Source of the DNA: a virus
Taxonomy: Duplodnaviria > Caudoviricetes
Virus record (IMG/VR): IMGVR_UViG_2917791510_000001
Coordinates: 1 to 64,000 of that record
Reading direction: 5' to 3' (one strand)
Length of the DNA: 64,000 nucleotides
Shown here: positions 1-44,559 of the stretch, piece after piece
How the letters are laid out: each line of letters begins with the position of its first letter
How positions within the stretch are numbered: position 1 is the first letter of the stretch
Translations under genes and position numbers: made by a program
Notes under the pieces: generated by a model
The model's input: only the letters and a program-made list of their open reading frames with translations
Told to the model about the DNA's origin: nothing
Database searches by the model: none

Positions 1-66
1 CGCCAGCAGCTCGTCGGCGGCCTCGCGGGCGTGGGCCAGCATCGGCCGGCGGTTGGTGTCGTTCAT
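1..66 (-). CDS. Hypothetical protein, 3' part outside window (MNDTNRRPMLAHARE...)
   Basis: ATG at 66, downstream of the promoter/operator at 96-131 and the GACCAAGGAA motif. Confidence 0.6.
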   Translation of the reverse strand, partial: MNDTNRRPMLAHAREAADELLA

Positions 67-188
67 GGTCTCTCGCTTCCTTGGTCAACACTGCATGAAT
101 TGATTAAATCACCGTGGCGCCCGGTCGACAACCCCCGGGAACGAAGAAGCCCCGGAACCATACGGCTCCGGGGCTTCGTGACCGAACG

Positions 189-3580: not shown

Positions 3581-3660
3581 GCACCGCTCGCTGCGCTCAC
3601 GGGTCCACAGCATGCCGAAGCCCCGGGCCCTGAGGCTCCGGGGCTTCGGGGTCGGGTGGG

Positions 3661-3873
3661 TCAGCGGCCGTGGATGCAGAACTCCCGACGGAACCGGGAG
3701 ATGGTGTACCCCGTGCGGGGCAGTTCGGCGGCCGTGGTGTCGATGACGTACCAGCGCCTCGGACCCCGGCCGCGCGTCACTTCGGTGTCGTCGTTGTACG
3801 GCTCCAGCCGGTAACGGCCGTCGTTGGTCTCGTACACCCCGCCACCGAGGCGCTTGAGGGTCCGGGCGGTCAT
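3661..3873 (-). CDS. Hypothetical protein (MTARTLKRLGGG...)
   Basis: TGATG coupling with the upstream gene; ends at a hairpin cassette. Confidence 0.6.
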   Translation of the reverse strand: MTARTLKRLGGGVYETNDGRYRLEPYNDDTEVTRGRGPRRWYVIDTTAAELPRTGYTISRFRREFCIHGR

Positions 3874-4915: not shown

Positions 4916-5042
4916 GGTCGGTTCCTCGTTCCGTGGTCTCTGTCCCGATGAATTAATTAAACCATAGTCCCGACGAACGTGCAACCCCGGAACACAGCGA
5001 AGCCCCGGGCCGTGAGGCTCCGGGGCTTCGGGGTCGGGCAGG

Positions 5043-5339
5043 TCAGTAGGTCTCCAGCTCACTGACCGCCTCGTACAGCGTGTTGTCGATGGTCCCAAGG
5101 ACTTCCTGTGCCTTGGGGCTGTCCCCGAGCAGGTCGACAGCGGTGAGGTGGTTCGCCGCCTCCTCCAGCCACTCGCAGTTCGGGTCAAGCGAGCTGAGCT
5201 TGCCCGAGGTGTCCCGCAGGAGGGACGCGAGACCGGCGAACGTGGCGCCGTACTCGGTCACGTCGAGGCCTACGACGGCAGTGAGCCGCCCGGCGTACTC
5301 GGCGTGCAGGGATTCGGCTGAGGTCGTCTTGGTAGCCAT
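5043..5339 (-). CDS. Hypothetical helical protein
   Basis: GACCAAGGAA plus GAGGAA SD; ends at a hairpin cassette. Confidence 0.7.
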   Translation of the reverse strand: MATKTTSAESLHAEYAGRLTAVVGLDVTEYGATFAGLASLLRDTSGKLSSLDPNCEWLEEAANHLTAVDLLGDSPKAQEVLGTIDNTLYEAVSELETY

Positions 5340-5620: not shown

Positions 5621-6037
5621 TCACCGCCTCTTGCGCCCCAGCGCCTCCGCCTTGGCCGCGTCCATCGCCGCCTTGCCCCGGGCCGCGATGGCGCCGGTCT
5701 GCGAGTTGATGACGTACGCGATCACCAGCCCGAGCAGGGCCAGAGCCGCGAGCACCGCCACCACGACGACCAGCACCGTGGCCAGCACCGCCGCGCAGAT
5801 CGTGAGGACGACGCAGGCGAGCAGCGCCGTCCACAGATACGGGAGGATCTTGTGCGCCATCGACTGCTGCGGACCCTGGTGGACGATGTGGTCCGCCGGG
5901 ATCGGGGCCGCCGGCGCGTAGTGGTGGTGCACGTGGACGTGGACTCCGCCCTCTGCGCCTTGCGGCGGCGTCGGGTTGGCCCGCAGGTAGTCCAGCAGCT
6001 CGCCGGGGACGGGGGCATGCCTCCGTTCTATCTCCAT
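5621..6037 (-). CDS. Membrane protein, possibly Spd-like spread protein
   Basis: Long hydrophobic hairpin, HVHVHHH motif, basic tail; near traB. Confidence 0.6.
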   Translation of the reverse strand: MEIERRHAPVPGELLDYLRANPTPPQGAEGGVHVHVHHHYAPAAPIPADHIVHQGPQQSMAHKILPYLWTALLACVVLTICAAVLATVLVVVVAVLAALALLGLVIAYVINSQTGAIAARGKAAMDAAKAEALGRKRR

Positions 6038-6181
6038 GATCTCGATTCCTTGATTCCTTGGACAGTCGGGGCCCTGATGGACCCTCGAATTAGTTGTACC
6101 ACGGCCGTGGCCAGGTCAACCGCCTGCGAAAACGACGAAGCCCCGGGCCGTTTCGGCTCCGGGGCTTCGGGTCGGGACGGG

Positions 6182-6388
6182 TCACCTCTGGGATTGTTCC
6201 TCCGCTTCGTCGGCCTTACGGAGCAGAACGGCTGCGAGTTCCCGCGCCTGTGCGGGGGTGTGGCGTGCGGTGGACGGCGGGGCGTAGTCCCCAGCGTCGG
6301 TGAACACCTGCACCTCCCCGTCTTCGGCCGACACCGTTGTGTCTGTGTTGTCGTGGCCTTTGATCGTCGTCATCTCGGAGTTGCTCAC
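6182..6388 (-). CDS. Hypothetical protein (TPAQARELAAVLLRKAD motif)
   Basis: GTG start after GAGGAA; flanked by hairpin cassettes. Confidence 0.6.
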   Translation of the reverse strand: MSNSEMTTIKGHDNTDTTVSAEDGEVQVFTDAGDYAPPSTARHTPAQARELAAVLLRKADEAEEQSQR

Positions 6389-6464
6389 CGGAGGTTCCTC
6401 GTTCCTCAGTCGATTCGGGTGAAGCTCCGGGCCGTTTCGGCTCCGGGGCTTCGAGTCGGGGCGG

Positions 6465-6656
6465 TCAGGCTCCGGAGACCAGACGCACCTTGCGCTGGAA
6501 CAGGCGCAGCGCGTCGCCCCGGCTGCGGGTGGCGTGCGAAACACGGTCACCCCGGCGAACCCTGTACCACGTGCCCGGGGTGCCCATGGTCCCGAAGTCG
6601 TCGGAGGCGACCTCCAACGCGATCCCGGCGCGAAGCGTCTCGGTGGTCCAGGTCAT
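6465..6656 (-). CDS. Hypothetical early protein
   Basis: SD GGAGG; promoter/operator at 6682. Confidence 0.65.
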   Translation of the reverse strand: MTWTTETLRAGIALEVASDDFGTMGTPGTWYRVRRGDRVSHATRSRGDALRLFQRKVRLVSGA

Positions 6657-6722
6657 CAGTTCCTCCAGCGGTCGGTCTCAATGAATTAACTAAACCATCA
6701 ATCCGGCGACCGCGCAACACCC

Positions 6723-7172
6723 CTACGCGGCGAACCGCCAGACGGCCTGTCCGCCCCGGGAGTCGTCCACCAGACGGCCCTCGTCCACGAGGGTGCCGAG
6801 CACCATGTAGATCCAGGGGCGGGACCGCCCTGTCATCTCGGACAGGTCCCGGAAGTGCTGGACCGTCATCCGCTCGATTCCGGCGGCCCGCAGGGCCTCC
6901 AGACGGGCCTCCACGAGACGGCGTGCCTCGGCCTGTGTGGGGCGCGGACGGCCCCGGGCGGCGGCCAGATCAGGCGCCGTGGCGACGGCCTCCAGGCGGG
7001 CCGTGGAGCGGTGTGCGGCGGCCTCCCGGCGGGCCAGGCCGAGGGAGCCCTGGAGCACCCCAGGGACGACTTCCTGGGCCACCTCCAGGCCGTGCAGGGC
7101 GCACAGCGGGACGGGCTTGGTGATGACGGGGGCGGCGTCGCAACGGGCGGCGCAGGTCAGTTCCTTGCTCAT
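6723..7172 (-). CDS. Protein with N-terminal Cys/His motif and C-terminal winged-HTH resembling the TraB C-terminus
   Basis: GRSRPWIYMVLGTLVDEGRL resembles TraB GRSRVWVYDELERLEEIGVL; SD AAAGGA. Confidence 0.65.
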   Translation of the reverse strand: MSKELTCAARCDAAPVITKPVPLCALHGLEVAQEVVPGVLQGSLGLARREAAAHRSTARLEAVATAPDLAAARGRPRPTQAEARRLVEARLEALRAAGIERMTVQHFRDLSEMTGRSRPWIYMVLGTLVDEGRLVDDSRGGQAVWRFAA

Positions 7173-7261
7173 GTCAGTGGTCCTTTGTCAGAGTTCCTTG
7201 GTCGTGTCGGAGGACCGGCCGGACGGGAGAGAACCAAGGCCAGGGGCCCGCTGGGCTCCCG

Positions 7262-7400
7262 GCCGACAACCGACTGACGGTCCGACAACGTCAGCCAAGA
7301 TCGCCGAATGACGCTCCGACAGGCGGCTGACGAGCCGACACCTTCAGTGTGCCCCACCGAATGACGTTTCTACACACGACTGACGTGCCGACAAACGTCA
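7262..7400. repeat. clt-like array of short direct repeats (CCGACA and CGA(C/A)TGACG units) downstream of traB
   Basis: Non-coding; CCGACA at 7263, 7282, 7316, 7335, 7388, interleaved with TGACG units. Confidence 0.6.
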
Positions 7401-7456
7401 GGGCGGGCACCCGGTTGACTACCCGGATGCCCGCCCTGACACGTTGCCGTTGATGC

Positions 7457-9442
7457 TCACCCCACAGCGGCGGCTTCCTCGTACACCGACCCGGTGATCT
7501 CGTAGACCGCCGCCCTCGTGTTGGGCGGTGTGAGCCGACGCAGCACGCCGATCTCCTCCAGTCGCTCGAGCTCGTCGTACACCCAGACACGAGAGCGCCC
7601 GACCAGCGTGGGGAGGTCCTGAAGCGCCTCGAACGTGACCTCGGTCGCCTCCCCGGACGCCAGGATCCCGATGCGATTGAGCATCTCCGCACGGGCGTCC
7701 TCGGTGGTCATCCGCGACACCAGCGGCTCGGCGAAGGTGACCAGCGGACTCCTTCCCCTTGGCGAAGCCAAGGGCTCGCCCACGTCGATGCCGTCCACGG
7801 AAGACAGCGACACGCCGCTGACCTCGGCAAAGTCCCGGTCCACGTCGTCCTCCTCGTCGGCCTCCACGGCGCCTTCGTCCACGATCCCCGCCGACAGGAT
7901 CTCGTAGGAGCCCTTGTCCAGCTCCGCCCAGAACGGCCGGGTGACCCGGATCATCTCCTCACGGTCGGTTGCCTTCACGCGCGGCGCCCGGCCATCGATC
8001 GGCCAGTGGCCCTTGTCCGTGCCCGTGACCTCGGCATACAGCGAACCGGGGGCGTTGTTGGCCCACTTGGTCGGGTCCGCGCCGGCCTCCAGCGTCTCGG
8101 CCTCCAGGGAGTACCGGGCGTCCTGGTATTCCTTCTGCCCGTGGGCCAGGCTCTGGGCGAACTGACCTCGGGTTTTGCGGGGGATGTTGTCGTGCGGCAT
8201 GGTCTGCGCGGACGCGCAGAAGTGCACGCCGACCGACCGCAGCTTGCGCAGCGCCTCATCGGCTTCCTCGTCCACGACCGGCAGTACGTCGGTGGCTTCC
8301 TCGATGTCCAGGAAGATGGCCGGGATGCCGTGCCGCGTGTACAGCTCGGGCACCCACTGCTTGTAGCCCTTGCCGCCGTCTGACCTGGGAAGAACCCCGA
8401 ACAGGCCCGCCCGGTACTCGATGAGCGGGATGAGGTTCCGCACGAGCTGCTCAGTGTGCTCCCGGGTCTTCGCGGCCAGCCCCAGCACCTCTTCGATGTC
8501 GCCGAAAGACTGCTGGAACTTGGCCGGGTCGCCGACCACGGGGACGATGTCGACGCGCTCGCGCATCTGGAGGATGGCGGTGCAGATGGTCTCCGTCTTG
8601 CCCGCGCCGGTCATGCCGGTGCACTTCGTGTGGGCCAGTGGCCTGGGGTTTTTCTCGTCGTCGGAGCCGACGATCCACCAGTCGATGTCCGAACCGTCGG
8701 TGCGCTGGCCGAGCCAGATCGGCGCGTCCGCAATCGACTTGCCGGGGTGCCTCGGGCCCGTCCAGACGACCGGCTTGGAGGCGCCCTGGCTGCGGGTGAA
8801 CACCACGTCCACCTGCGACGCGTCACCCTTGACCTTGAGCACCTTGACGTCGGCCGCGTCGACACCAGCGACAGAAGCGATCTGGTCCTTCACGTCCTGC
8901 GCGTCCTTGGAGGAGTTCGGCGGGTCCAGGTGGACCCGGGCGCGCAGCTCCTGCTCCGACTGCGTCACCTTGCCGACCTTGGCGTCCTTGAACGCCCGGA
9001 CCTTGGTCAGCAGGCCGTCGGTAACCTCGCTGGCCTGCGACTTGTCGACGTCCCGGACGCCCGACAGGGCCGCGTGCCGGATGCACCAGGCGACCGACAT
9101 GACGAGGCCGCCGATGGCCCACGCCTTGACGATGTCAGCCTGCCAGGGCTTGACCGCCACAGCGAAAAGAGTCCAGGTCAGAAGGGCGACTGTGAACGCC
9201 ATGACCATGTTCCGCGTCTCCTTGCGGCGCACAGCCCAGTTCTTCCAGGCGCTGTACGCCAGGTACACGAAGCCGAGGGCCATGAGCGCGACCCACAACG
9301 GATTGTCGCCGATGACGAGGTGAAGCACGGCAGCCAGCGGCCAGACGGCCACGGTGATGACCCACGGCAGAACGTACGAGACGATCCGCTCGGGCACGTT
9401 GAACAGGGCATATCCCCGCAGGCGGGGCGCGTGATCCGACAT
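7457..9442 (-). CDS. traB: TraB-like FtsK/SpoIIIE conjugative DNA translocase
   Basis: N-terminal TM helices, Walker A TGMTGAGKT, Walker B IFLDIEE, LRKLRSVGVH..SAQ, C-terminal wHTH. Confidence 0.85.
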   Translation of the reverse strand: MSDHAPRLRGYALFNVPERIVSYVLPWVITVAVWPLAAVLHLVIGDNPLWVALMALGFVYLAYSAWKNWAVRRKETRNMVMAFTVALLTWTLFAVAVKPWQADIVKAWAIGGLVMSVAWCIRHAALSGVRDVDKSQASEVTDGLLTKVRAFKDAKVGKVTQSEQELRARVHLDPPNSSKDAQDVKDQIASVAGVDAADVKVLKVKGDASQVDVVFTRSQGASKPVVWTGPRHPGKSIADAPIWLGQRTDGSDIDWWIVGSDDEKNPRPLAHTKCTGMTGAGKTETICTAILQMRERVDIVPVVGDPAKFQQSFGDIEEVLGLAAKTREHTEQLVRNLIPLIEYRAGLFGVLPRSDGGKGYKQWVPELYTRHGIPAIFLDIEEATDVLPVVDEEADEALRKLRSVGVHFCASAQTMPHDNIPRKTRGQFAQSLAHGQKEYQDARYSLEAETLEAGADPTKWANNAPGSLYAEVTGTDKGHWPIDGRAPRVKATDREEMIRVTRPFWAELDKGSYEILSAGIVDEGAVEADEEDDVDRDFAEVSGVSLSSVDGIDVGEPLASPRGRSPLVTFAEPLVSRMTTEDARAEMLNRIGILASGEATEVTFEALQDLPTLVGRSRVWVYDELERLEEIGVLRRLTPPNTRAAVYEITGSVYEEAAAVG

Positions 9443-9456
9443 GACTCGCATCTCCC

Positions 9457-10041
9457 CTAGACCACGGAGAAGCCGTTGTTGCGGCCCCCGGGACGACGGA
9501 TTCCACCACGGCCGCCATCGTTCTCCAGCTCGTCCAGCAGGGTCTCGAACCGCCTCCATGCCTTGACCGCGTCGGCCGCGCCGCTCACGCAGGAGTTGGC
9601 CAGCTTGTCGAGATCCTTGCCCACCCGGCGCAGCGTGGTCGCCAGCTTGGCGGCCTGCATCGGGCCCATCCACCCGTCGTTGGTCTGCCGGGCCTGCGCC
9701 CGCGCAGCCGCCTTGAGCTGGCCTTCTGCCATCTTGGCGGACACGGCGAGGTAGTTGAGGACCGCCCGGTACGCCTCGCAGAAGGCATGCAGGTCGTCCT
9801 GGTTGGACAGCTCCAGGGAGCCGATGGAGTTGGCGAGCTGGGCGATGTTCTGGCCCCGCGTGCCAGCCGGCCGGGACGGCCGCTGACCTGCGCCGTTGGC
9901 CTGACCGTTCGCCGGCTGCGACGGCAGCGGGTGGCCGTTGGAGTCGATGCCCTGGCGGCGCAGGTCCGCCGCTGACTTGCCCGCTGCGCGGCCCTGCGCG
10001 CTGAACGGGTTGTCCGGGCTGTTCGTGCCGATGCTGCTCAT
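9457..10041 (-). CDS. TraA-like plasmid transfer accessory protein
   Basis: Directly upstream of traB; Gly/Asn-rich N-terminus, helical core; own operator at 10103. Confidence 0.55.
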   Translation of the reverse strand: MSSIGTNSPDNPFSAQGRAAGKSAADLRRQGIDSNGHPLPSQPANGQANGAGQRPSRPAGTRGQNIAQLANSIGSLELSNQDDLHAFCEAYRAVLNYLAVSAKMAEGQLKAAARAQARQTNDGWMGPMQAAKLATTLRRVGKDLDKLANSCVSGAADAVKAWRRFETLLDELENDGGRGGIRRPGGRNNGFSVV

Positions 10042-10130
10042 CTTCCTGGTTCCTCTTCCTTGGTCGGATGGGCGAAAGCTTCACCAGGGTTGTCCCCAGT
10101 GAGGCTTTACCTAAATCAATCGTCTCGCGC

Positions 10131-10721
10131 TCAGCGTGTACGCGCAATGGCCTTCTTCAGGCTGTCCGGCTTGACGCCCTCGTGTCCCGGCAGGGTGGGG
10201 ACGATGGTCTTGATCTCGTTCTCGGTCCGCCCGGCCTTTCGCAACTCTCGCACAGCGGCCGTCAGGCTTTCGCCGGCGAGAGCTTTCAGCGAGAGGTGCT
10301 CTTGCCTTCCGCTCTCGGGCTCTCGCCCCGGTGCCTTTCGTTCGGGGGTCTCTCGCCTCTCGTCCTCGGCGAGCGCAAGCGCAAGGGCTGCGGCCTGGCG
10401 GGGCGAAAGGTCCAGGGCGGACGCAACCGCAAGCGCCACGGCCCCGATGCGCAAGGCGAAAGCGTGCGGGGAGTCAAGGCTTTCGGCCTTGCGGCACTCC
10501 GGGCAGTTGCCGAGGTAGAACGCCTCCTTCGGCGTCGGCACGGCGGTTCCTGCGTCCAGGACTGCGAGGCGGGAGTTGCACGACCCGCACAGCAGCCCGC
10601 GAGAGTATCCATGCACGTGGCAGTGGTCCACGACCAGGTCAGTACGGCGGGAGCCGCAGCGGACGCACGTTTCGTCGCGCCCTGCTGCGGCTCCCTTGAT
10701 GTAGCGGTACGGCACCGTCAC
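10131..10721 (-). CDS. Endonuclease VII-like (His-Me finger) domain protein with C-terminal HTH-like tail
   Basis: CVRC..LVVDHCH..G.SRGLLCGSCN signature; GTGA overlap. Confidence 0.75.
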   Translation of the reverse strand: MTVPYRYIKGAAAGRDETCVRCGSRRTDLVVDHCHVHGYSRGLLCGSCNSRLAVLDAGTAVPTPKEAFYLGNCPECRKAESLDSPHAFALRIGAVALAVASALDLSPRQAAALALALAEDERRETPERKAPGREPESGRQEHLSLKALAGESLTAAVRELRKAGRTENEIKTIVPTLPGHEGVKPDSLKKAIARTR

Positions 10722-11740
10722 GATCCGTTCGCCCCCATGCTGCGCAGCGCCGAGCGGTGCGCGCGGATGCTGTCGCCGGAGACGGTGACGCCGACCAGCG
10801 CCAGCACCTCCGAGAGTTCCCGTGCGGTCAGGCCCGGGTTCACCAGGTCCGCTTTCGCGACGGCCTCCCGCTTCGAAAGGTCTCCCCACACCGGGGGTTC
10901 GTGCGAAAGCAGGGCGGCGGCGTACGTCGTCGCGTCGGCCGAAAGCTCTCGCTTCGGGCTTTCGGTCGCGTCCTTTCGGGCCTCTCGCTTCGGGCTTTCG
11001 GTCCTTTCGCTTTCGGCCGGAGCGAAAGCGAGAGCCGTCGTCCAGTCGTGGCGCGCGTCGATGGACGCCAGGCCGGTGACCGACTTCCGGCGCACGACGC
11101 GCGCGACGATGGCGGCCTCCGCCGCGCTCGCCTCGTCCGGCGAAAGCCCGTGACGCGCGGCGTCGATCTGAGTGGCGAGCTGAGCCGAGAGCCTGCGGTG
11201 CGCCCTGCTGCCCGACTTGGCGGCGGCTACCTGGTCCGCGAGGTTGACGGCGCGGTCCGCCGCCCGGCTGCGGGCGATGGCTGCGGAGTCGGCGCCCCGG
11301 CGGCCGATGCCGAGGAAGGACGCCAGCCGCTCACGGGCCTCGCGGAGGGCGGAGGCGAGCAGGCCCGTCGACTTCTCCCCGGACATGCGCAGTTCGAGGC
11401 CGAGCAGGAGGTGGAGCAGGACGGCCAGCAGGACGGGGCCGAGGATGACCCGGACCGGGCCGCCCGCCGCGCCGGACACCTTGAAGGCGGGGATGGACTG
11501 GACGAGGACGGCGGCGTACGCGAGGTACGCGGGTCCCTTGGTGCGGGTGGCCCACGAGTAGGTCGTCAGCGCGATGATGGCCGCCTCGGCGACGCCGCAC
11601 AGCGCGCCGCGCTCCACGTGGCCGGTGATCTGGAGCACCTGACCCAGGTAGCGGTACGAGGTGTCGGCGGACATGCCCAGCGCCAGGGTGGTGGGGATGA
11701 GCAGGCCGAACGTTGCGGCCCGCGTGCGGTTCACTGCCAT
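10718..11740 (-). CDS. Multi-TM Spd-like conjugal spread protein with C-terminal HTH
   Basis: About four TM segments, helical middle region, TESPKRE repeat, ARELSEVL HTH-like end; operator at 11768. Confidence 0.6.
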   Translation of the reverse strand: MAVNRTRAATFGLLIPTTLALGMSADTSYRYLGQVLQITGHVERGALCGVAEAAIIALTTYSWATRTKGPAYLAYAAVLVQSIPAFKVSGAAGGPVRVILGPVLLAVLLHLLLGLELRMSGEKSTGLLASALREARERLASFLGIGRRGADSAAIARSRAADRAVNLADQVAAAKSGSRAHRRLSAQLATQIDAARHGLSPDEASAAEAAIVARVVRRKSVTGLASIDARHDWTTALAFAPAESERTESPKREARKDATESPKRELSADATTYAAALLSHEPPVWGDLSKREAVAKADLVNPGLTARELSEVLALVGVTVSGDSIRAHRSALRSMGANGS

Positions 11741-11891
11741 GTCGATTCCTTGATTCCGTGGTCTGGATGATTTCCTTAAATCATCGTACCCCGTCTGCAT
11801 GCCCCGCCGCCACCCCGGTCATGCCTGAAAGCCCCCACGGATCGTCCCGTGGGGGCTGATTTCGTTCGGTATGGCTGTTTCTGGCCGTTCG

Positions 11892-12395
11892 TCAGACGGC
11901 CGGGGCACTCCCGGACTTGTCCTGTCCCGGGGCGGACAGGACCAGGTACTCACCGGGCTCCGCGCCGTCGGCGGACAGGTGTCCCGACTGAACCAGGTCC
12001 CGGATCTTCCCCTCGGCCCAGTCCCGGACCGCCTTCGTCCCGGCGTCCGTGTGCGGCGCCGCCAGGAGGACGAGGTCCCGGACGTCGGTCCAGTCGCTGC
12101 CGCTCGTGACACGGGCGCGCAGGTGGTCCCGGACGACCGTGTCCAGGTTCCCCCTCTCGTACGACGTCATCGGCTTCTCGGCGGCCCGCCACGCGCTCCG
12201 CTCACGGTTCTCGTAGTCGGCCTGCCCCTGCTGGCCGAGGCGCTCCAGTTCCCGGGCCCAGGCGATGAGCAGCGTGCGCTCCCGGAAGGACAGAGCTGCG
12301 ATGAAGCGCCGGGCCTCGAGCGGGTTGTCGCCGATCACCTCCAGCAAGGCGTTCACAGCGGATGACTCAGCGATCGTCAACTCGGGCTTGTCCAT
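11892..12395 (-). CDS. Hypothetical protein, possible wHTH C-terminus
   Basis: Operator at 12414, GACCAAGGAA, SD; ends at hairpin 11828-11858. Confidence 0.65.
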   Translation of the reverse strand: MDKPELTIAESSAVNALLEVIGDNPLEARRFIAALSFRERTLLIAWARELERLGQQGQADYENRERSAWRAAEKPMTSYERGNLDTVVRDHLRARVTSGSDWTDVRDLVLLAAPHTDAGTKAVRDWAEGKIRDLVQSGHLSADGAEPGEYLVLSAPGQDKSGSAPAV

Positions 12396-12514
12396 GGTCT
12401 TCCTTCCTTGGTCTGATTTCCTTAAATCACCCTACCCGGTGCCGGAGATCCCGAACCCAGGGGGCATGGAAGAGCCCCCACGGGTTGTCCCGTAGGGGCG
12501 TCCCTGTCCCGGGG

Positions 12515-12823
12515 CTACTTGTCCGGGACGTCGTGCGGGCTGAACGGGTCCACCGGCTCCGGGGCACCCCGGGGACTGAAGGGGTCGACGCACGGGTGCT
12601 GCACCCCGTCGTCCGTGACGAGTTCGCTGTACCAGAAGTCCGTGATCTCTATCCCGGCGAGCGGGACGTTCTCGGTCCGGGACAGATCCTGCACGGCCGC
12701 CGCGCGCAGCCGCACCTCGTCGCACCGGCCGTGGGCCCACGCGGAGCCCTCGATCTCCCGCGTCCTGCCGGAGAAGACGACGGTCCCTCCGTAGACGTAC
12801 CCGTACGTCCGTGGCCCCGTCAC
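12515..12823 (-). CDS. Hypothetical protein with two DPF motifs
   Basis: GTGA overlap with the upstream stop; terminator hairpin at 12472-12498. Confidence 0.55.
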   Translation of the reverse strand: MTGPRTYGYVYGGTVVFSGRTREIEGSAWAHGRCDEVRLRAAAVQDLSRTENVPLAGIEITDFWYSELVTDDGVQHPCVDPFSPRGAPEPVDPFSPHDVPDK

Positions 12824-13143
12824 CGCAGGTACCCCGAACCGGAGTTGACGCGCCACGCGCGCGCGCCCTCGTCGCTGACGGAGCGCAGGACCCCGAGGCC
12901 CTCCAGGACGATCAGGTGATCCCCGATCCAGGACAGCGGCCGGCCGGCCTGCTCGGCGGTACGGGTGAAGTCGTCCAGGATGAAGGTCCGCGTGCCCCTG
13001 TCGTGCAGGTACCCGATCCGCTCCCGTACGCAGGTCTCCAGGGACGCGTGCGATGGCGATACCCGTTGTCGTACGGTCAGTCCGTCGCCGGGGGCGACGG
13101 GAGATCCGGTCGTGGCGGTGGTGGGCGTCACGACTTCCTCCAT
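12820..13143 (-). CDS. Small winged-HTH protein (TraB C-terminus-like)
   Basis: AGRPLSWIGDHLIVLEGLGVLR. Confidence 0.55.
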   Translation of the reverse strand: MEEVVTPTTATTGSPVAPGDGLTVRQRVSPSHASLETCVRERIGYLHDRGTRTFILDDFTRTAEQAGRPLSWIGDHLIVLEGLGVLRSVSDEGARAWRVNSGSGYLR

Positions 13144-17113: not shown

Positions 17114-17210
17114 CGGTGCGCGGACGGGACTCGAACCCATGTCTCTCGGCGCTGTCCGGCACGGGGGTGACCGGGACACCGAGGCTCTTGGCCAGTTGAG
17201 CTACCGCGCG
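17114..17210 (-). ncRNA. tRNA-like RNA with an extended hairpin replacing the anticodon loop
   Basis: Acceptor GCGCGG/CCGCGC, U8A9, D arm GCTC-AACTGGCCAA-GAGC, stem CTCGG/CCGAG enclosing 29 nt, T arm ATGGG-TTCGAGT-CCCGT; no encoded CCA. Confidence 0.7.
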
Positions 17211-21621: not shown

Positions 21622-24291
21622 CTAGGACCGGGGAACGAAACGGTCCAGCTTGCGCGAAGCGATGGTGACCGCGAACAGGTCCGAGGCGAGGCCCGCGCGG
21701 ATCCCCTCGGGCACCTCCTTGCCCGCGTACCGCAGCAGGCCGACCAGCTTCGTGGACGCAGGCTTCTTCCGCCAGGACGCCGACTTGGTCATGTTCAGGC
21801 TCGAGCGGTCCGAGGCCTCCGTCTCCGCCCACGCCATCGCCATGCCGAGGTCCAGGCCCTCGTGCAGCCGCTCCCACGTCCCGCGCGGCGGCGCATAAGC
21901 CACGTCCCACTTCTCCTCGCCGCCCTTGGACGGCCAGATCACGATCTCGCCGCTGTCACCCAGCGGGATGAACTGGACGCCCGCGTTGGTCCGCAGCCAC
22001 GAGTACGCGGCCGACGCCTTGAAGAGATCGATGTCCCGGTGCTTCAGCTCGAACCGCAGCGAGCCGGCCGGGACCTTGGACTCCTTCCGGGATTCCTCGC
22101 GCTCGTACGCCTCGGCCAGCGTCTCGCCGTCCTCCACCACCTTGCCTTCGAGACCGGGCTCCAGGTCGACCAGCGTGCACAGCGATCCGCCCTCGCCGGC
22201 GAGGATGAGCACCAACGCGTCGCTCTTGCCGGTGGCGGGGGAGGGGCGCAGCACGCGGCCGACCATCTGGATAAAGAGCGGTTGGGACTTCGTCGGACGG
22301 GCGATCACCGCGCAGTCGCTGTGGGGGAAATCCGCACCCTCGGTCAGCACCATGCAGTTGACCAGGGTTCGGACCTCGCCCGTCCTGAACTTCCGGTAGA
22401 TGTTCAGCCGTTCTTCGCGAGGCGTCCCGCCGTGTACGTACGCCGCGTCCGGCAGGGCCTCGGCCGTGGCCCGCGCGACCTCCACCGTCGGCGTGAAGAC
22501 GATGGGGCTACGCCGGTCGGCCGCATGCTCCTCCAGAACCTTGTGGATGATCTGCGGGCCGCCCGCCTCCATCATCGCGTCGCCGAGGTCCTTGGCCTGG
22601 TAGTCGCCCTTCGAGCGCTTGACGTCGCCGAGGTGCAGGGTGTCCACGTCAATGATCTTGGACTTCACGTCGACCAGGTGGCCCCGGGACATCATCCACA
22701 GTGGGGAGCGGGTATAAACCGCGTCCTCCCAGACATCCCCGAGTCCCTGGCCGTCGCCCCGGGCGAGCGTTGCGGTGAAACCGGCGGCTCGCGTCGGGTC
22801 GTCCTCGCCCTCGGCGACGTCCATGCCGCTGTAGCAGCCGAGTCCCGCCAGGATGCTGACGTAACTTTTGGCACTTGCGTGATGACATTCGTCGACGATC
22901 ACCAGGCCGACCTTGCCGCACGTCTTCTGCGAGTCCAGCAGGCGGTTGAACCGGGTCTCCCGGGCCAGGGTCTGCACCGAGCAGACCATGACGTCGGCGG
23001 CTATGTTGTCGTCTGCCGCCTTCACCTTGCCGATGAACAGGCCCGGCTCCGTCTGCTTCAACTTGCTCAGCGTCTGGTCGGCCAACTCGTCGCGGTGCAC
23101 GAGGATGACCACGCGGGTGCCGTGCTCCGCAATGTGCTCAGCCGCCATGCGGGAGAACACGACCGTGTTGTGCGTGACAATGTGGTGCCGCGTCACTTGG
23201 TACAGGCTGTCCGGTGCGGCCACCCGGATGCACCGGATCTCCTGGTCCTCCACGCGCTCCACGGCCACGATGGTGCGCCGGGGTTCGAACGTACGACGGG
23301 GTCCGTTGGTGCGGGTCTTCCTCGGTGTGGAGATGGCCGGAACGTCCGACGGCATGAGGATGCGCACCGTCAGGCTCTCGTACGCCTTGCCGTTGGACGG
23401 CTGGACCCGTTCCGATGACCCTACTGTGGCCGTGCCGCCGAGGGAGCACACCAGCTCCCGGACGTCCTCGGCCAGTTGCGGAGAGGTGGTGTGGTAGAGC
23501 ACCGACCGACGTTCGTCCCGGGATGAGCCGTCGTTGTCCATGAGGCCCTGCAACAGCGCGACGCGTTGCGCCGTACCGGCCTCCAGGTACCGACGCGGGA
23601 TGAACTTGTCCGCGCTGACCACGCCCAGACCCATCGAGCGGATGTGACGCTGAATGCCTCGGACGACGAACCGGGGGCAGTACCGCGTCTCGTCCACGTG
23701 CGCCCGGGTCACCTCGTGCTCGGTGCTGACCCGCTCGGCCACGTGCTCGTCGGGCGTGGTCAGCATCGGGCTGGTGTGGGCCAGGTAGCCATTGGCGATC
23801 AGTGACCCCAGTGTGTACGGGCCCACGGGAAGGTCCACGTCGGGCGTAACGGTGCCGGACACCGGGACGGCCCACCGGTTGCTCCGTTCGTACCGCAGGC
23901 CGAGACTGGCGATGTCCGCCGTGCTGAGCGTGCGGACCTCCTTGGACGTGCGCCGGTGCGCGTAGTCCCGGACAGTCCACAGGTGCTCGGCATCCGTGAT
24001 GACGGAGGATCCGTCGCTGAAGGTCACGCGGAACGCGGGCAGGACGCCACGGTCGTAGACGTCCGTGACCTCCGTGGGGCAGCCGTTGCTACCGAAGACG
24101 AGGTCTCCCGGCTGGAGGTCACCCCACTTGCGCAGGCCGTCCGGTGTGGGGATCTCGGTGTCCAGCGGGTGGCCTTTGCCGGCGCCGGTCGGGAGCACAA
24201 CGGCCGGCCGCTGCATGCCCTCGGCCCACGCGGCCTGTACGGCGTCGATGGCCTCGCGCTGGTACTCGCGGAGGGTCAATGTCTGGCTCAC
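21622..24291 (-). CDS. SF2 DEAD/DEAH helicase containing an intein
   Basis: LREYQ Q-motif, GAGK/T split by the intein, IVDECHH, GFTAT, LTEGAD, QMVGRVLR. Confidence 0.92.
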   Translation of the reverse strand: MSQTLTLREYQREAIDAVQAAWAEGMQRPAVVLPTGAGKGHPLDTEIPTPDGLRKWGDLQPGDLVFGSNGCPTEVTDVYDRGVLPAFRVTFSDGSSVITDAEHLWTVRDYAHRRTSKEVRTLSTADIASLGLRYERSNRWAVPVSGTVTPDVDLPVGPYTLGSLIANGYLAHTSPMLTTPDEHVAERVSTEHEVTRAHVDETRYCPRFVVRGIQRHIRSMGLGVVSADKFIPRRYLEAGTAQRVALLQGLMDNDGSSRDERRSVLYHTTSPQLAEDVRELVCSLGGTATVGSSERVQPSNGKAYESLTVRILMPSDVPAISTPRKTRTNGPRRTFEPRRTIVAVERVEDQEIRCIRVAAPDSLYQVTRHHIVTHNTVVFSRMAAEHIAEHGTRVVILVHRDELADQTLSKLKQTEPGLFIGKVKAADDNIAADVMVCSVQTLARETRFNRLLDSQKTCGKVGLVIVDECHHASAKSYVSILAGLGCYSGMDVAEGEDDPTRAAGFTATLARGDGQGLGDVWEDAVYTRSPLWMMSRGHLVDVKSKIIDVDTLHLGDVKRSKGDYQAKDLGDAMMEAGGPQIIHKVLEEHAADRRSPIVFTPTVEVARATAEALPDAAYVHGGTPREERLNIYRKFRTGEVRTLVNCMVLTEGADFPHSDCAVIARPTKSQPLFIQMVGRVLRPSPATGKSDALVLILAGEGGSLCTLVDLEPGLEGKVVEDGETLAEAYEREESRKESKVPAGSLRFELKHRDIDLFKASAAYSWLRTNAGVQFIPLGDSGEIVIWPSKGGEEKWDVAYAPPRGTWERLHEGLDLGMAMAWAETEASDRSSLNMTKSASWRKKPASTKLVGLLRYAGKEVPEGIRAGLASDLFAVTIASRKLDRFVPRS
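23167..24174 (-). mobile_element. Class 3 intein (336 aa) with LAGLIDADG homing endonuclease, inserted in Walker A
   Basis: Starts GHPLDTEIPTP, block B EHLW, block F RCIRV, block G IVTHN/T; LLQGLMDNDG. Confidence 0.88.
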
Positions 24292-42357: not shown

Positions 42358-44559
42358 ATGGTGGACGCGAGGCTGAGGAGCAGGGCGGCCGACAAGCTGC
42401 TGATGCACGCGCGGCTGGTCACCGAGCCGCGCTGGACGCCGCTGCCCCACCAGGTCCCGCCGGAGCCCGGGTTCTACGGCTGGCTGCTCATGGCCGGCCG
42501 TGGCGCCGGGAAGACGGACGCCTGCGCGAGGTACGTCCACGAGCACGTCATGGGGCCGCCGTGCCTGCCCGGCCCGATCCCGCACTGGGTGGGCATCATC
42601 GCTCCGACCCTCGGCGACGCGGCCACGTCCTGCTATGCCGGTCCGTCCGGCCTCCGCGTGCACAGCCCTGAGGCAAAGATGACGACCGTGCAGGGCGGAA
42701 CCGTCATCCGCTGGCCCAACGGCTCCGAGGCCAAGCTGTTCGGCGCGCACTCACCCGAGGACGTGGAACGCCTGCGGTCCGGTGGTAACCGTTGTGCGGC
42801 TGAGGGCACGCTGGTTCGGACTGAGCACGGCGAACGGCCCATTGAGACGATCCGTCCGGGGGACAGGGTGTGGACGCGCAACGGCCTGCGCGAGGTGTTG
42901 CACGTCTGGGACAACGGAGTCAAGGAGGTCCGGCGGTACGACCACGCGGCCGGTTCCACGCAGTTGACCCCGGATCACGAAGTATGGACCGATGAAGGCT
43001 GGATTCCCGTTTCCTCCGTCAAGCCAACGGGAACAGTCTTTACATGGGAAAACACGGAGAATCAGTCAGCTACGACGGCGTCTTATGGCACCCGCGCGAA
43101 GACGGTTATTACCAGAACAAGCACCGTGGCCTGCTGCACCGGCACATGTACACCCGCGAGGTCGGACCGATACCCAACGGGATGCAGGTGCACCACAAGA
43201 ACCACGTCAAGACTGACAACCGGGTCAGCAACTTCGTGCTGTTGCGGCCAGGGGAGCACTGGCAGGAGCACCACGGCGAGCGTGGCGAGGACTGGCACGC
43301 CAAGGGCGGCCGAGCGTCCTGGAAGGACGTCGCAGTCCGAGACTTCACCTGCCAGCGGTGTGGCGAACCCTTCCAGTCCCGCAGCCACCATGGCGTGGTC
43401 CGGTACTGCTCCAATGCCTGCCGTGACTATGGCTCACGACCACGGGAAGAACGGGTGTGCCGCGTGTGCGGCAACACGTTCAAGTGCGCGGTTCGTTCCA
43501 CGTCCAGCACCTGTTCGCGCAAGTGCACTGCGGACTACGTCGCACAGATCAAGCGTTCGCGTGTACGACCTGACGGTGGAGCATGACCACGAGTTCTTCG
43601 CGGACGGCCTGCTCGTCTCCAACTGTGTGAGCTGGTTGGAGGAGCTAGCAGCGTGGCGCTATCTCGATGACACGTGGGATCAGATCCGGTTCGGTCTGCG
43701 CTCCGGGCCGCGCCCGCACTGGGTCGCGTCGACCACGCCGAAGCCCCGGGCTCTGATCAAGAAACTGTCTGCCGGCGGTGTGGACAACGTGGTCATCACC
43801 CGGGCGACGACGTATGACAACCCGCACCTGCCCGAGGACATCCGCGAGGCGCTCGAGGATGCCTACGGCGGGACGCAGATCGGCCGGCAGGAGCTGTACG
43901 CCGAGGTCATCGACCAGGACGAGAACGCCCTGTGGAGCCGGGGAATCATCGACGCGGGCCGGCTGCGCCCGGACGAAGTGCCGCCGCTGGCGCGCAAGTC
44001 CGTCGGCGTGGACCCGTCGGGCGGCCGGGGCGAGCAGGGCATCGTCGTGGTGGGCAAGGCGATGGTGGAGCACCTGCGCACGGTCAACGGACGGGAACGC
44101 ACGGTGCAGCTCGCCCACGGCTACGTCCTCGCCGACCGCACGTGCCATCTCTCCCCGGACGGCTGGGGGCGGCGCGCCGTGCAGGCGGCCGTCGACTACG
44201 AGGCTGACGACATCTGCGTGGAGACCAACTTCGGCGGGGACATGGCGCTGAACACGATCCGCTCGGCGGCCGACTCGATGGGGATCAGCATCCCGATCAA
44301 GAAGGTCACGGCCACTCGGGGGAAGAAGGTCCGCGCGGAGCCGGTAAGCGCCCTGACCGAGCAGGGCCGCTGGCACATGGTCGGCACCTTCCCTGAGCTG
44401 GAGGACCAGATGTGCGAGTGGTACGACGAACTCGACTGGTCGCCCGACCGTTTGGACGCGATGGTGTGGCCGGCCTGGCACCTGCGGATCGTGAAGGCGG
44501 CGATGACCGGGAACACCACGGCGGGCGGGCTCGCGGCAGCGGGCCGTCAGATCGGGTGA
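42358..44559 (+). CDS. terL: Terminase large subunit with intein
   Basis: AGRGAGKT, WLEE Walker B, STTPK, TYDNPHL, VGVDPS, ETNFGG, PDRLDA. Confidence 0.93.
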   Translation: MVDARLRSRAADKLLMHARLVTEPRWTPLPHQVPPEPGFYGWLLMAGRGAGKTDACARYVHEHVMGPPCLPGPIPHWVGIIAPTLGDAATSCYAGPSGLRVHSPEAKMTTVQGGTVIRWPNGSEAKLFGAHSPEDVERLRSGGNRCAAEGTLVRTEHGERPIETIRPGDRVWTRNGLREVLHVWDNGVKEVRRYDHAAGSTQLTPDHEVWTDEGWIPVSSVKPTGTVFTWENTENQSATTASYGTRAKTVITRTSTVACCTGTCTPARSDRYPTGCRCTTRTTSRLTTGSATSCCCGQGSTGRSTTASVARTGTPRAAERPGRTSQSETSPASGVANPSSPAATMAWSGTAPMPAVTMAHDHGKNGCAACAATRSSARFVPRPAPVRASALRTTSHRSSVRVYDLTVEHDHEFFADGLLVSNCVSWLEELAAWRYLDDTWDQIRFGLRSGPRPHWVASTTPKPRALIKKLSAGGVDNVVITRATTYDNPHLPEDIREALEDAYGGTQIGRQELYAEVIDQDENALWSRGIIDAGRLRPDEVPPLARKSVGVDPSGGRGEQGIVVVGKAMVEHLRTVNGRERTVQLAHGYVLADRTCHLSPDGWGRRAVQAAVDYEADDICVETNFGGDMALNTIRSAADSMGISIPIKKVTATRGKKVRAEPVSALTEQGRWHMVGTFPELEDQMCEWYDELDWSPDRLDAMVWPAWHLRIVKAAMTGNTTAGGLAAAGRQIG
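42793..43623 (+). mobile_element. Intein (277 aa) in TerL
   Basis: C1 (CAAEGTLV), block B LTPDHEVW, block F VYDLTVEHDHEFFADG, terminal VSN followed by C+1. Confidence 0.9.
43044..43586 (+). CDS. HNH homing endonuclease with Zn-finger repeats, encoded in an alternative frame inside the TerL intein
   Basis: LHRHMY...GPIP.GMQVHHKN..KTDNRVSN; CQRCG..F..YCSNAC and CRVCG..F..TCSRKC; frame offset from TerL. Confidence 0.88.
   Translation: MGKHGESVSYDGVLWHPREDGYYQNKHRGLLHRHMYTREVGPIPNGMQVHHKNHVKTDNRVSNFVLLRPGEHWQEHHGERGEDWHAKGGRASWKDVAVRDFTCQRCGEPFQSRSHHGVVRYCSNACRDYGSRPREERVCRVCGNTFKCAVRSTSSTCSRKCTADYVAQIKRSRVRPDGGA

Follow-up and report, generated by a model that had tools for sequence, protein, structure and literature searches.

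A putative TraB/clt transfer module in pS1D4-14.2, an extrachromosomal Streptomyces phage-plasmid, and its relatives

The DNA analysed here is a 64-kb window comprising bases 1–64000 of NZ_CP041606.1, the plasmid pS1D4-14.2 (98,815 bp) of Streptomyces sp. S1D4-14, a strain sourced from French forest soil; the record is also catalogued as an IMG/VR virus, with a CheckV completeness of 100%. Between positions 5621 and 13143 of the window, the minus strand carries a block of genes (the tra block; Table 1) encoding a predicted DNA translocase (TraB), a TraA-like protein, putative Spd-like membrane proteins and a paralogue of the TraB C-terminus, together with a repeat array resembling the clt loci of Streptomyces plasmids. 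The replicon that carries this block also encodes a tailed-phage gene set, and we propose that the block is an ancestral transfer module of a phage-plasmid lineage.

The traB gene begins at an ATG at position 9442 behind a GGGGAGA ribosome-binding site, the 896-aa open reading frame (ORF) of the raw listings being an upstream read-through. Its product matched NCBIfam NF041214 (plasmid_TraB; E 7.7e-85, 285.7 bits) over profile positions 4–624 of 639, and tblastn against PLSDB recovered 44 other plasmid or chromosome records, nearly all from Streptomyces, at 23–28% identity; the annotated traB genes of pSN22, pWTY27 and pJV1 matched at 24–28%. The Tra proteins of these three plasmids have been studied experimentally, and the pWTY27 TraB homologue is required for transfer and binds clt (PMC3583192). 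A PDB sequence search returned nothing useful. An AlphaFold (AF2) model built with 31 homologues as input (mean predicted local distance difference test score, pLDDT, 73) contains four N-terminal transmembrane helices (residues 18–127), a beta domain, an ATPase core at approximately 240–520 (pLDDT >90), a disordered linker (523–574) and a winged helix-turn-helix (wHTH) domain (580–650). Foldseek ranked FtsK motor domains as the top matches to this model (E 2e-14), followed by TcpA, EccC and EssC. Across the 31 homologues (49–89% identity), Walker A (G276–T283), Walker B (F377/E381/E382) and about 130 other positions are invariant. The predicted protein thus combines an N-terminal membrane anchor, an FtsK-like P-loop motor with Walker A and B motifs and a C-terminal wHTH, bearing out the initial annotation of an FtsK ATPase with a wHTH. 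With family membership established by NCBIfam, tblastn and fold search, we assign the protein, on its sequence, as a divergent member of the plasmid TraB family rather than an equivalog.

Just past the traB terminator hairpin lies the clt-like array that the initial annotation had also picked out. The repeat core TGACGNNCCGACA is present in four copies, all within 7275–7393 on one strand and nowhere else, against 0.12 expected. In relatives the location of the array and hairpin is kept and the repeat units differ, being of the CTGAC[AG] or GTCACGGAC types; by analogy, same-place arrays with changed units match the behaviour of plasmid-specific clt sites. The clt of pWTY27 and pSVH1 occupies the same location relative to traB (PMC3583192), so that short direct repeats near the traB 3′ end, at a position conserved in relatives, are found here as in those plasmids. 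The 149-aa protein encoded beyond the array aligned to NF041214 positions 554–631 (E 1.7e-11); its gene was present in nine of nine relatives examined, and the clt-like repeats sit within its promoter region. A second small protein with faint similarity to the TraB wHTH is encoded at the far end of the block and is 51–55% identical in eight relatives. The wHTH recognition helices co-vary with repeat type, but they do so along clades; this co-variation is inseparable from phylogeny and was dropped as evidence.

The gene directly upstream of traB had been annotated as traA-like. Its location fits that label and its homology is weak: the score against NF041213 (E 3.9e-5) is 23.8 bits relative to a cut-off of 80, and hhalign returned a probability of 63% (E 7e-5) with pSN22 TraA and of 5% with S. 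canus TraA. The equivalent gene beside a 40%-identical TraB carries PF28214 (TraA-like). Further upstream, the 340-aa SpdB-like protein has a counterpart on a 17-kb S. canus plasmid, where the gene lies two ORFs past traB and the product is 76% identical over residues 22–237 of the 340-aa protein. The order GntR, TraA-like, TraB, 172-aa gene, SpdB-like homologue recurs on other small contigs (including L022/L023); the homologue is thus a membrane protein encoded beside traB in the transfer regions of conjugative plasmids. Atlas feature neighbours of the 340-aa protein fall in SpdB, DUF2637 and 'conjugal transfer protein' clusters at 0.88–0.93, which we treat as a lead only. The protein has no Pfam or NCBIfam family match and a Pfam scan of 26 homologues was likewise empty; PF27079 and PF27080 appeared in no Pfam scan, and were possibly absent from the Pfam copy used. 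With the Pfam scan empty and hhalign negative, an SpdB/DUF2637 identity was set aside as unsupported, and we assign the protein to the transfer region by association. For the Spd-like membrane genes of the initial annotation, membrane character and plasmid transfer-region context were recovered; homology to characterised Spd proteins was not. The SpdB-like N-domain is approximately 76% identical to those of small conjugative plasmids (L017:7228–8451, L022, L023), while the TraBs share approximately 25%, a disparity that points to unusually strong constraint, perhaps from a conserved host partner, or to recent single-gene exchange.

The SpdB-like gene is one intact ORF of 397–412 aa in relatives (L003, L007, L015). 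In pS1D4-14.2 the ORF with an Endonuclease VII (EndoVII) domain looks like an insertion that splits it, the last ~45 aa of this ORF (10140–10268) corresponding to the HTH that once formed the C-terminus of the SpdB-like protein and is here joined to the nuclease. The split is probably tolerated, since a short or split form is itself frequent among relatives (P0123–P0150). Homing-endonuclease-type insertions are abundant on the element, comprising a LAGLIDADG match inside the helicase, an HNH gene beside or within the terminase and an annotated LAGLIDADG gene (window 21622–24291 and 42793–44559; record 78898–81084), and the EndoVII insertion is consistent with this pattern.

Turning to regulatory signals, the leader GACCAAGGAA occurs in 20 exact copies in the window against 0.04 expected, and in 56 copies across the genome at one mismatch or fewer, nearly all directly before a start codon of the non-structural arms. 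Three exact copies lie in the tra block, at 7194–7203 and at the two leader sites of Table 1, with a one-mismatch copy at 11754–11763; the leaders are therefore shared with the phage early genes, as had been noted. About 20 genes carry GGGGTTGC followed, after a gap of ~17 nt, by TGGTTTAATTAATTCA, an arrangement that reads as a −35 and extended −10 promoter, and the palindromic −10 region of TGGTTTAATTAATTCA could also be an operator. The initial annotation placed one and the same 16-bp operator at 10103, 11768 and 12414 and described the module as wired into the phage regulon. The 16-mer TGATTTAAGGAAATCA is exact at 11768 and 12414 only, the 10103 site matching at 12 of 16 positions, and it differs at four positions from the majority form TGGTTTAATTAATTCA of ~20 other promoter-like sites. 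Nine relatives keep this variant ahead of the SpdB-like gene, and in them neighbouring genes use the majority form. The module thus appears to be driven by the element's own family of leaders and AT-rich palindromic promoters, as a distinct, conserved and module-specific sub-class, which suggests that it is integrated in phage regulation and separately controlled. A near-copy of the leader motif, GACCAAGGAT, is found at record position 89388 on the plus strand, beyond the window. A GC-rich hairpin cassette (GAAGCCCCGGGCC...GGCTCCGGGGCTTC) is repeated between genes at 3616–3664, 4998–5046, 6137–6185 and 6420–6468, and is probably part of a modular terminator–promoter–leader unit used across the early arms.

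The remainder of pS1D4-14.2 encodes virion and lysis proteins (portal, MuF/protease-like fusion, a 597-aa major capsid protein (MCP), tape measure, terminase and endolysin), replication proteins (a primase-helicase-PolA replicase, a superfamily 2 helicase and an exonuclease) and maintenance proteins (ParA, the product of its partner gene, a ParB-family protein and a single tyrosine recombinase, the element's integrase). A complete set of virion, packaging and lysis genes is accordingly found, along with partition genes, on an extrachromosomal replicon. In INPHARED the closest MCP of an isolated phage shares ~34% identity and no isolate phage of the lineage is present; the tra block (megablast) and the TraB ORF (tblastn) gave no match among 50,697 phage records, placing TraB in no isolated phage there. 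The sole trace of TraB in a phage library is PHROG 24831 (function unknown; E 2e-51).

The initial annotation had proposed a test of whether the contig is circular or extrachromosomal. pS1D4-14.2 is a separate replicon within a complete genome. GenBank and PLSDB label the record linear, yet a 113-aa ORF crosses the end-to-start junction (window 1–111 plus record 98540–98815), with its promoter and leader at window 67–111, and in six relatives this ORF is an uninterrupted single gene. No terminal direct or inverted repeats were found in the record, in three of four related IMG/VR contigs the two ends overlap, and Tidjani et al. 2020 list pS1D4-14.1 as the only linear plasmid of the strain (PMC7205883). 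On these grounds pS1D4-14.2 is a circularly closed extrachromosomal replicon, and the record is the circle opened within a gene; a linear invertron plasmid was rejected on the junction ORF and the Tidjani et al. listing.

Homologues of TraB number more than 200, many on contigs of 89–107 kb or 76–82 kb, and no contig with a homologue exceeds 107 kb. Relatives occur in four other Streptomyces isolates, on contigs of 92,743, 92,184 and 95,726 bp (the size of the whole element) and of 53,734 bp. NRRL B-24243 and NRRL S-455 are among the strains with a relative. TraB and a capsid gene occur together in all eight related IMG/VR records tested, in keeping with the proposed check for traB in related phage genomes, and the two proteins diverge in parallel: TraB identities of 74–78% accompany MCP identities of 81–84%, and TraB at ~52% accompanies MCP at 63–66%. 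Within these relatives the MCP is 63–84% conserved with no internal stops, and the records have CheckV completeness of 92–100%. In pS1D4-14.2 the tra block is situated between the exonuclease/helicase block and sugar-modification genes, and a 77-kb contig encodes a TraB of 44% identity in the same gene order (exonuclease/helicase, glycosyltransferase, 342-aa gene, 180-aa gene, TraB, methyltransferase, glycosyltransferase family 2, epimerase). Other Streptomyces plasmids with distant MCPs (99–104 kb) are absent from the 45 records with TraB matches. In view of the co-occurrence, the parallel divergence and the synteny down to 44% TraB identity, we conclude that the tra module was inherited from the ancestor of a broad clade of phage-plasmids. 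The block neither contains nor adjoins an integrase or rep gene, and its flanks hold no att-like repeats, only the regulatory cassettes that recur genome-wide; a passenger actinomycete integrative and conjugative element (AICE) was rejected on the absence of an own integrase, rep or bounding att direct repeats, in agreement with the initial annotation.

Together, these observations make it rather likely that pS1D4-14.2 belongs to a widespread lineage of ~76–107 kb extrachromosomal Streptomyces phage-plasmids that express a dsDNA transfer module of their own, inherited from an ancestor. With similar confidence we favour a role for this module in moving the element's dsDNA between or within mycelia in the plasmid state. 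TraB would enter the membrane via its four N-terminal helices and assemble an FtsK-like ring, its C-terminal wHTH would read the clt array just downstream of its own gene, and the motor would pump the unprocessed double-stranded element into a touching hypha. The SpdB-like protein, and possibly the 138-aa membrane protein, may aid passage of the DNA past cross-walls in the recipient mycelium, and the 149-aa wHTH paralogue, with repeats in its promoter region, probably modulates or competes for clt binding. Two horizontal routes would result, virions on the one hand and conjugation or spreading on the other, and the element probably spreads both as virions and by hypha-to-hypha transfer, along the lines suggested in the initial annotation. 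Each in-silico check proposed there turned out in favour of that interpretation, with corrections to the operator and to the Spd assignment. A more specific form of the proposal, to which we give about even weight, holds that the TraB/clt pump has been core to the lineage since before the split between its 76–80 kb and 90–107 kb members, as a virion-independent route with its own promoter variant and a wHTH-gated clt.

Several points weigh against this proposal. TraB falls well short of the NF041214 equivalog cut-off (285.7 against 800 bits) and a Pfam scan with E values up to 10 gave no FtsK_SpoIIIE match, so that its function could have drifted. For the SpdB-like protein no homology to characterised Spd proteins was found, the single hhalign comparison (with the pWTY27 DUF2637 protein) giving a probability of 0.7%, and in pS1D4-14.2 its gene is split by the EndoVII insertion. 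pS1D4-14.2 lacks the GntR regulator (TraR/KorA) that plasmid tra modules usually include. Nucleotide substitution ratios for traB (dN/dS, NG86, 28 pairs) are moderately low at 0.29–0.69, values that are unreliable given a third-position GC content of ~90% and the disordered linker.

The main alternative to transfer in the plasmid state is that the module serves only the lytic cycle, TraB and the membrane proteins pumping replicating phage DNA across cross-walls and so enlarging the productive zone, with no conjugation between strains. The leader and palindromic promoter family shared with the replication and early phage arms would suit such a role, as would the module's placement, flanked by the exonuclease/helicase block and the sugar-modification genes, and the lack of a plasmid-type GntR switch. 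However, the tra promoters form a conserved class of their own, suggesting control apart from most early genes, and ParA together with stable presence in five cultured isolates shows a long-lived plasmid state in which classical conjugation would pay. The sequence is compatible with both readings; we regard purely lytic spreading as unlikely, if still worth serious attention. TraB might instead serve maintenance, as an FtsK/SpoIIIE-like pump across sporulation or vegetative septa, or in dimer resolution with the tyrosine recombinase, ensuring spore inheritance. The FtsK motor is indeed its best structural match, a sequence-specific wHTH with oriented repeats resembles FtsK-gamma with its FtsK-orienting polar sequences (KOPS), the integrase has no assigned role and the partition system is ParA-type only. 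Yet the full-length homology is to plasmid TraB and not to FtsK, the TraA-like and SpdB-like partners are typical of transfer regions, and the repeats are clustered at one site like clt rather than dispersed like KOPS, which makes a maintenance role improbable.

Two further possibilities concern the standing of the module and of the phage. The block might be a recent acquisition, in the form of an AICE or a plasmid fragment, or a remnant in decay that does nothing for the phage. This could account for the ~76% identity of the SpdB-like N-domain to its small-plasmid counterparts, a possible sign of recent exchange, and for the split SpdB-like gene of pS1D4-14.2. Against this stand the conservation of TraB in more than 200 homologues with invariant catalytic motifs, its co-divergence with the capsid gene in all eight records, the synteny to 44% identity, the lack of att sites, integrase or rep of its own, a GC content equal to that of the rest of the element and the wide distribution of the split SpdB form. 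Conservation thus largely refutes a passenger or relic, which we consider barely credible. Conversely, the virion module might be defective, leaving a TraB-conjugative plasmid of phage ancestry. The ~34% identity of the closest isolated-phage MCP and a terminase annotated with an intein/HNH insertion are compatible with such a loss, but the portal, capsid, tape measure, terminase and endolysin genes are intact, the capsid gene is conserved without internal stops in near-complete relatives (as given above), and the narrow size range of 76–107 kb fits a capsid constraint. We consider an element that is no longer a phage highly improbable.

On the favoured reading of plasmid-state transfer, the mechanism would be of the single-motor TraB/clt type known from Streptomyces plasmids and AICEs. 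In common with the modules of pSN22, pWTY27, pSVH1 and pJV1, that of pS1D4-14.2 shows full-length TraB homology (transmembrane helices, FtsK-like motor, wHTH), a weakly TraA-like gene immediately before traB, direct repeats at the traB 3′ end and a shared membrane protein; the order membrane protein, TraA-like, TraB, repeats is that of pWTY27. It differs from these modules in the low TraB identity (24–28%, below the equivalog cut-off), the missing GntR TraR/KorA, the phage promoter and leader, the stand-alone wHTH paralogue and the EndoVII-split SpdB-like gene, and in its replicon, a 99-kb tailed phage as opposed to a 10–40 kb plasmid. In pWTY27 itself (NC_013667.2, 14 kb), PGAP annotates a 'phage major capsid protein' at 10642–12102, directly after traB and the experimentally defined clt. 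FtsK and SpoIIIE share with TraB the motor fold (E 2e-14) and a wHTH that recognises short DNA motifs present in several copies, in TraB by prediction, but TraB lacks a Pfam FtsK_SpoIIIE match, has another N-terminal and linker architecture, is plasmid-borne and is accompanied by clustered rather than dispersed repeats.

Precedent for Streptomyces plasmid-phages, invoked in the initial annotation, is provided by pZL12/pSLE1 (Zhong et al. 2010, J Bacteriol 192:3747), described in passages of PMC3583192 and PMC4487206 as a circular plasmid-phage of ~86–90 kb with virion proteins, ParAB, integrases and a conjugal transfer locus reported to be functional. pZL12 is the sole precedent for combining a plasmid-phage with transfer, but the two phages are unrelated and their Tra proteins differ. 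Both pZL12 and pS1D4-14.2 are circular Streptomyces plasmids with virion genes, partition, integrase and a transfer locus (putative in pS1D4-14.2); with pSLE1 as the sequence proxy for pZL12, clear tblastn matches were confined to the TerL C-terminus (36%) and the integrase (30%), plus a marginal 49-aa ORF (E 0.004). The MCP, portal, TraB and replication genes of pS1D4-14.2 had no tblastn match in pSLE1, placing the element outside the pZL12 lineage, and the transfer ATPase of pSLE1 is a 774-aa protein of the type IV secretion coupling-protein type encoded behind GntR, as opposed to a TraB/TraA pair. Because homology is nearly absent and the transfer ATPases differ, the two lineages appear to have gained transfer functions independently. 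In the P1, N15 and SSU5 groups, too, a tailed-phage genome persists outside the chromosome at low copy number and carries partition genes; unlike pS1D4-14.2, these families lack conjugation machinery.

Phage-plasmids are usually regarded as moving by virions only; according to a 2025 review, no conjugative member is known (PMC12282955), and the possibility has been largely overlooked by the field. The present data point to a whole family with a conserved TraB-type module, as against pZL12, a single element with a different transfer ATPase; the family counts over 200 TraB homologues in metagenomes and is found in five or more cultured strains. If the TraB/clt pump is indeed core to this lineage and gives it a second, virion-independent route, the lineage would represent the first truly conjugative phage-plasmid family of broad distribution. 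Should the module work, passage of naked dsDNA via hyphal contact would bypass receptor specificity, capsid-size limits and host killing, and models of host range, transduction and gene flow would change in a genus in which conjugation is regarded as the dominant mode of horizontal gene transfer. The element would also offer a simple system for studying arbitration between lysis, plasmid maintenance and conjugation.

Table 1. Features of the tra block of pS1D4-14.2 (window positions)
Feature	Position	Strand	Description
138-aa membrane protein	5621–6037	−	Transmembrane segment 88–106; 49–70% identity in 9 relatives; Spd role putative
63-aa gene with majority-class promoter 16-mer	6465–6697; 16-mer 6682–6697	−	16-mer TGGTTTAGTTAATTCA on gene strand
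149-aa protein	6723–7172	−	Cys-rich N-terminus and wHTH paralogous to TraB C-terminus; candidate clt-binding regulator
clt-like array	7266–7394	−	Four exact and one degenerate repeats, gene strand TGTCGGnnCGTCA; between traB terminator and next gene
traB terminator hairpin	7397–7440	−	18–19 bp stem; −50.9 kcal/mol, z −7.2; in all relatives
traB	7457–9442	−	661 aa; predicted membrane-anchored FtsK-like dsDNA translocase, C-terminal wHTH
traA-like gene	9457–10041	−	194 aa; 15 nt upstream of traB; NF041213 E 3.9e-5
Leader GACCAAGGAA and degenerate 16-mer	10056–10065 and 10103–10118	−	Upstream of traA-like gene
ORF with Endonuclease VII domain	10131–10727	−	PF02945 E 2.5e-8
SpdB-like membrane protein, N-terminal part	10718–11740	−	340 aa; match to small-plasmid gene; Atlas neighbours
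Second exact TGATTTAAGGAAATCA and leader variant GACCACGGAA	11768–11783; site 11754–11783	−	Predicted promoter/operator of SpdB-like gene
Hypothetical protein	11892–12395	−	167 aa; variable slot; present in 3 of 9 relatives
tra-variant 16-mer TGATTTAAGGAAATCA and leader GACCAAGGAA	12414–12429 and 12404–12413	−	Abutting; upstream of gene 11892–12395
Conserved hypothetical protein	12515–12823	−	102 aa; 49–59% identity in 9 of 9 relatives; no family match
Small protein	12820–13143	−	~103–107 aa; faint TraB wHTH similarity (NF041214 positions 564–632, E 0.011)

Among the remaining features of the block, an Atlas lead to DUF6251 for the 138-aa membrane protein was unsupported by the Pfam scan and was discarded. 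Elsewhere in the window, ARAGORN calls an over-long tRNA-Arg(CCG) of 96 nt at 17115–17210 on the minus strand.

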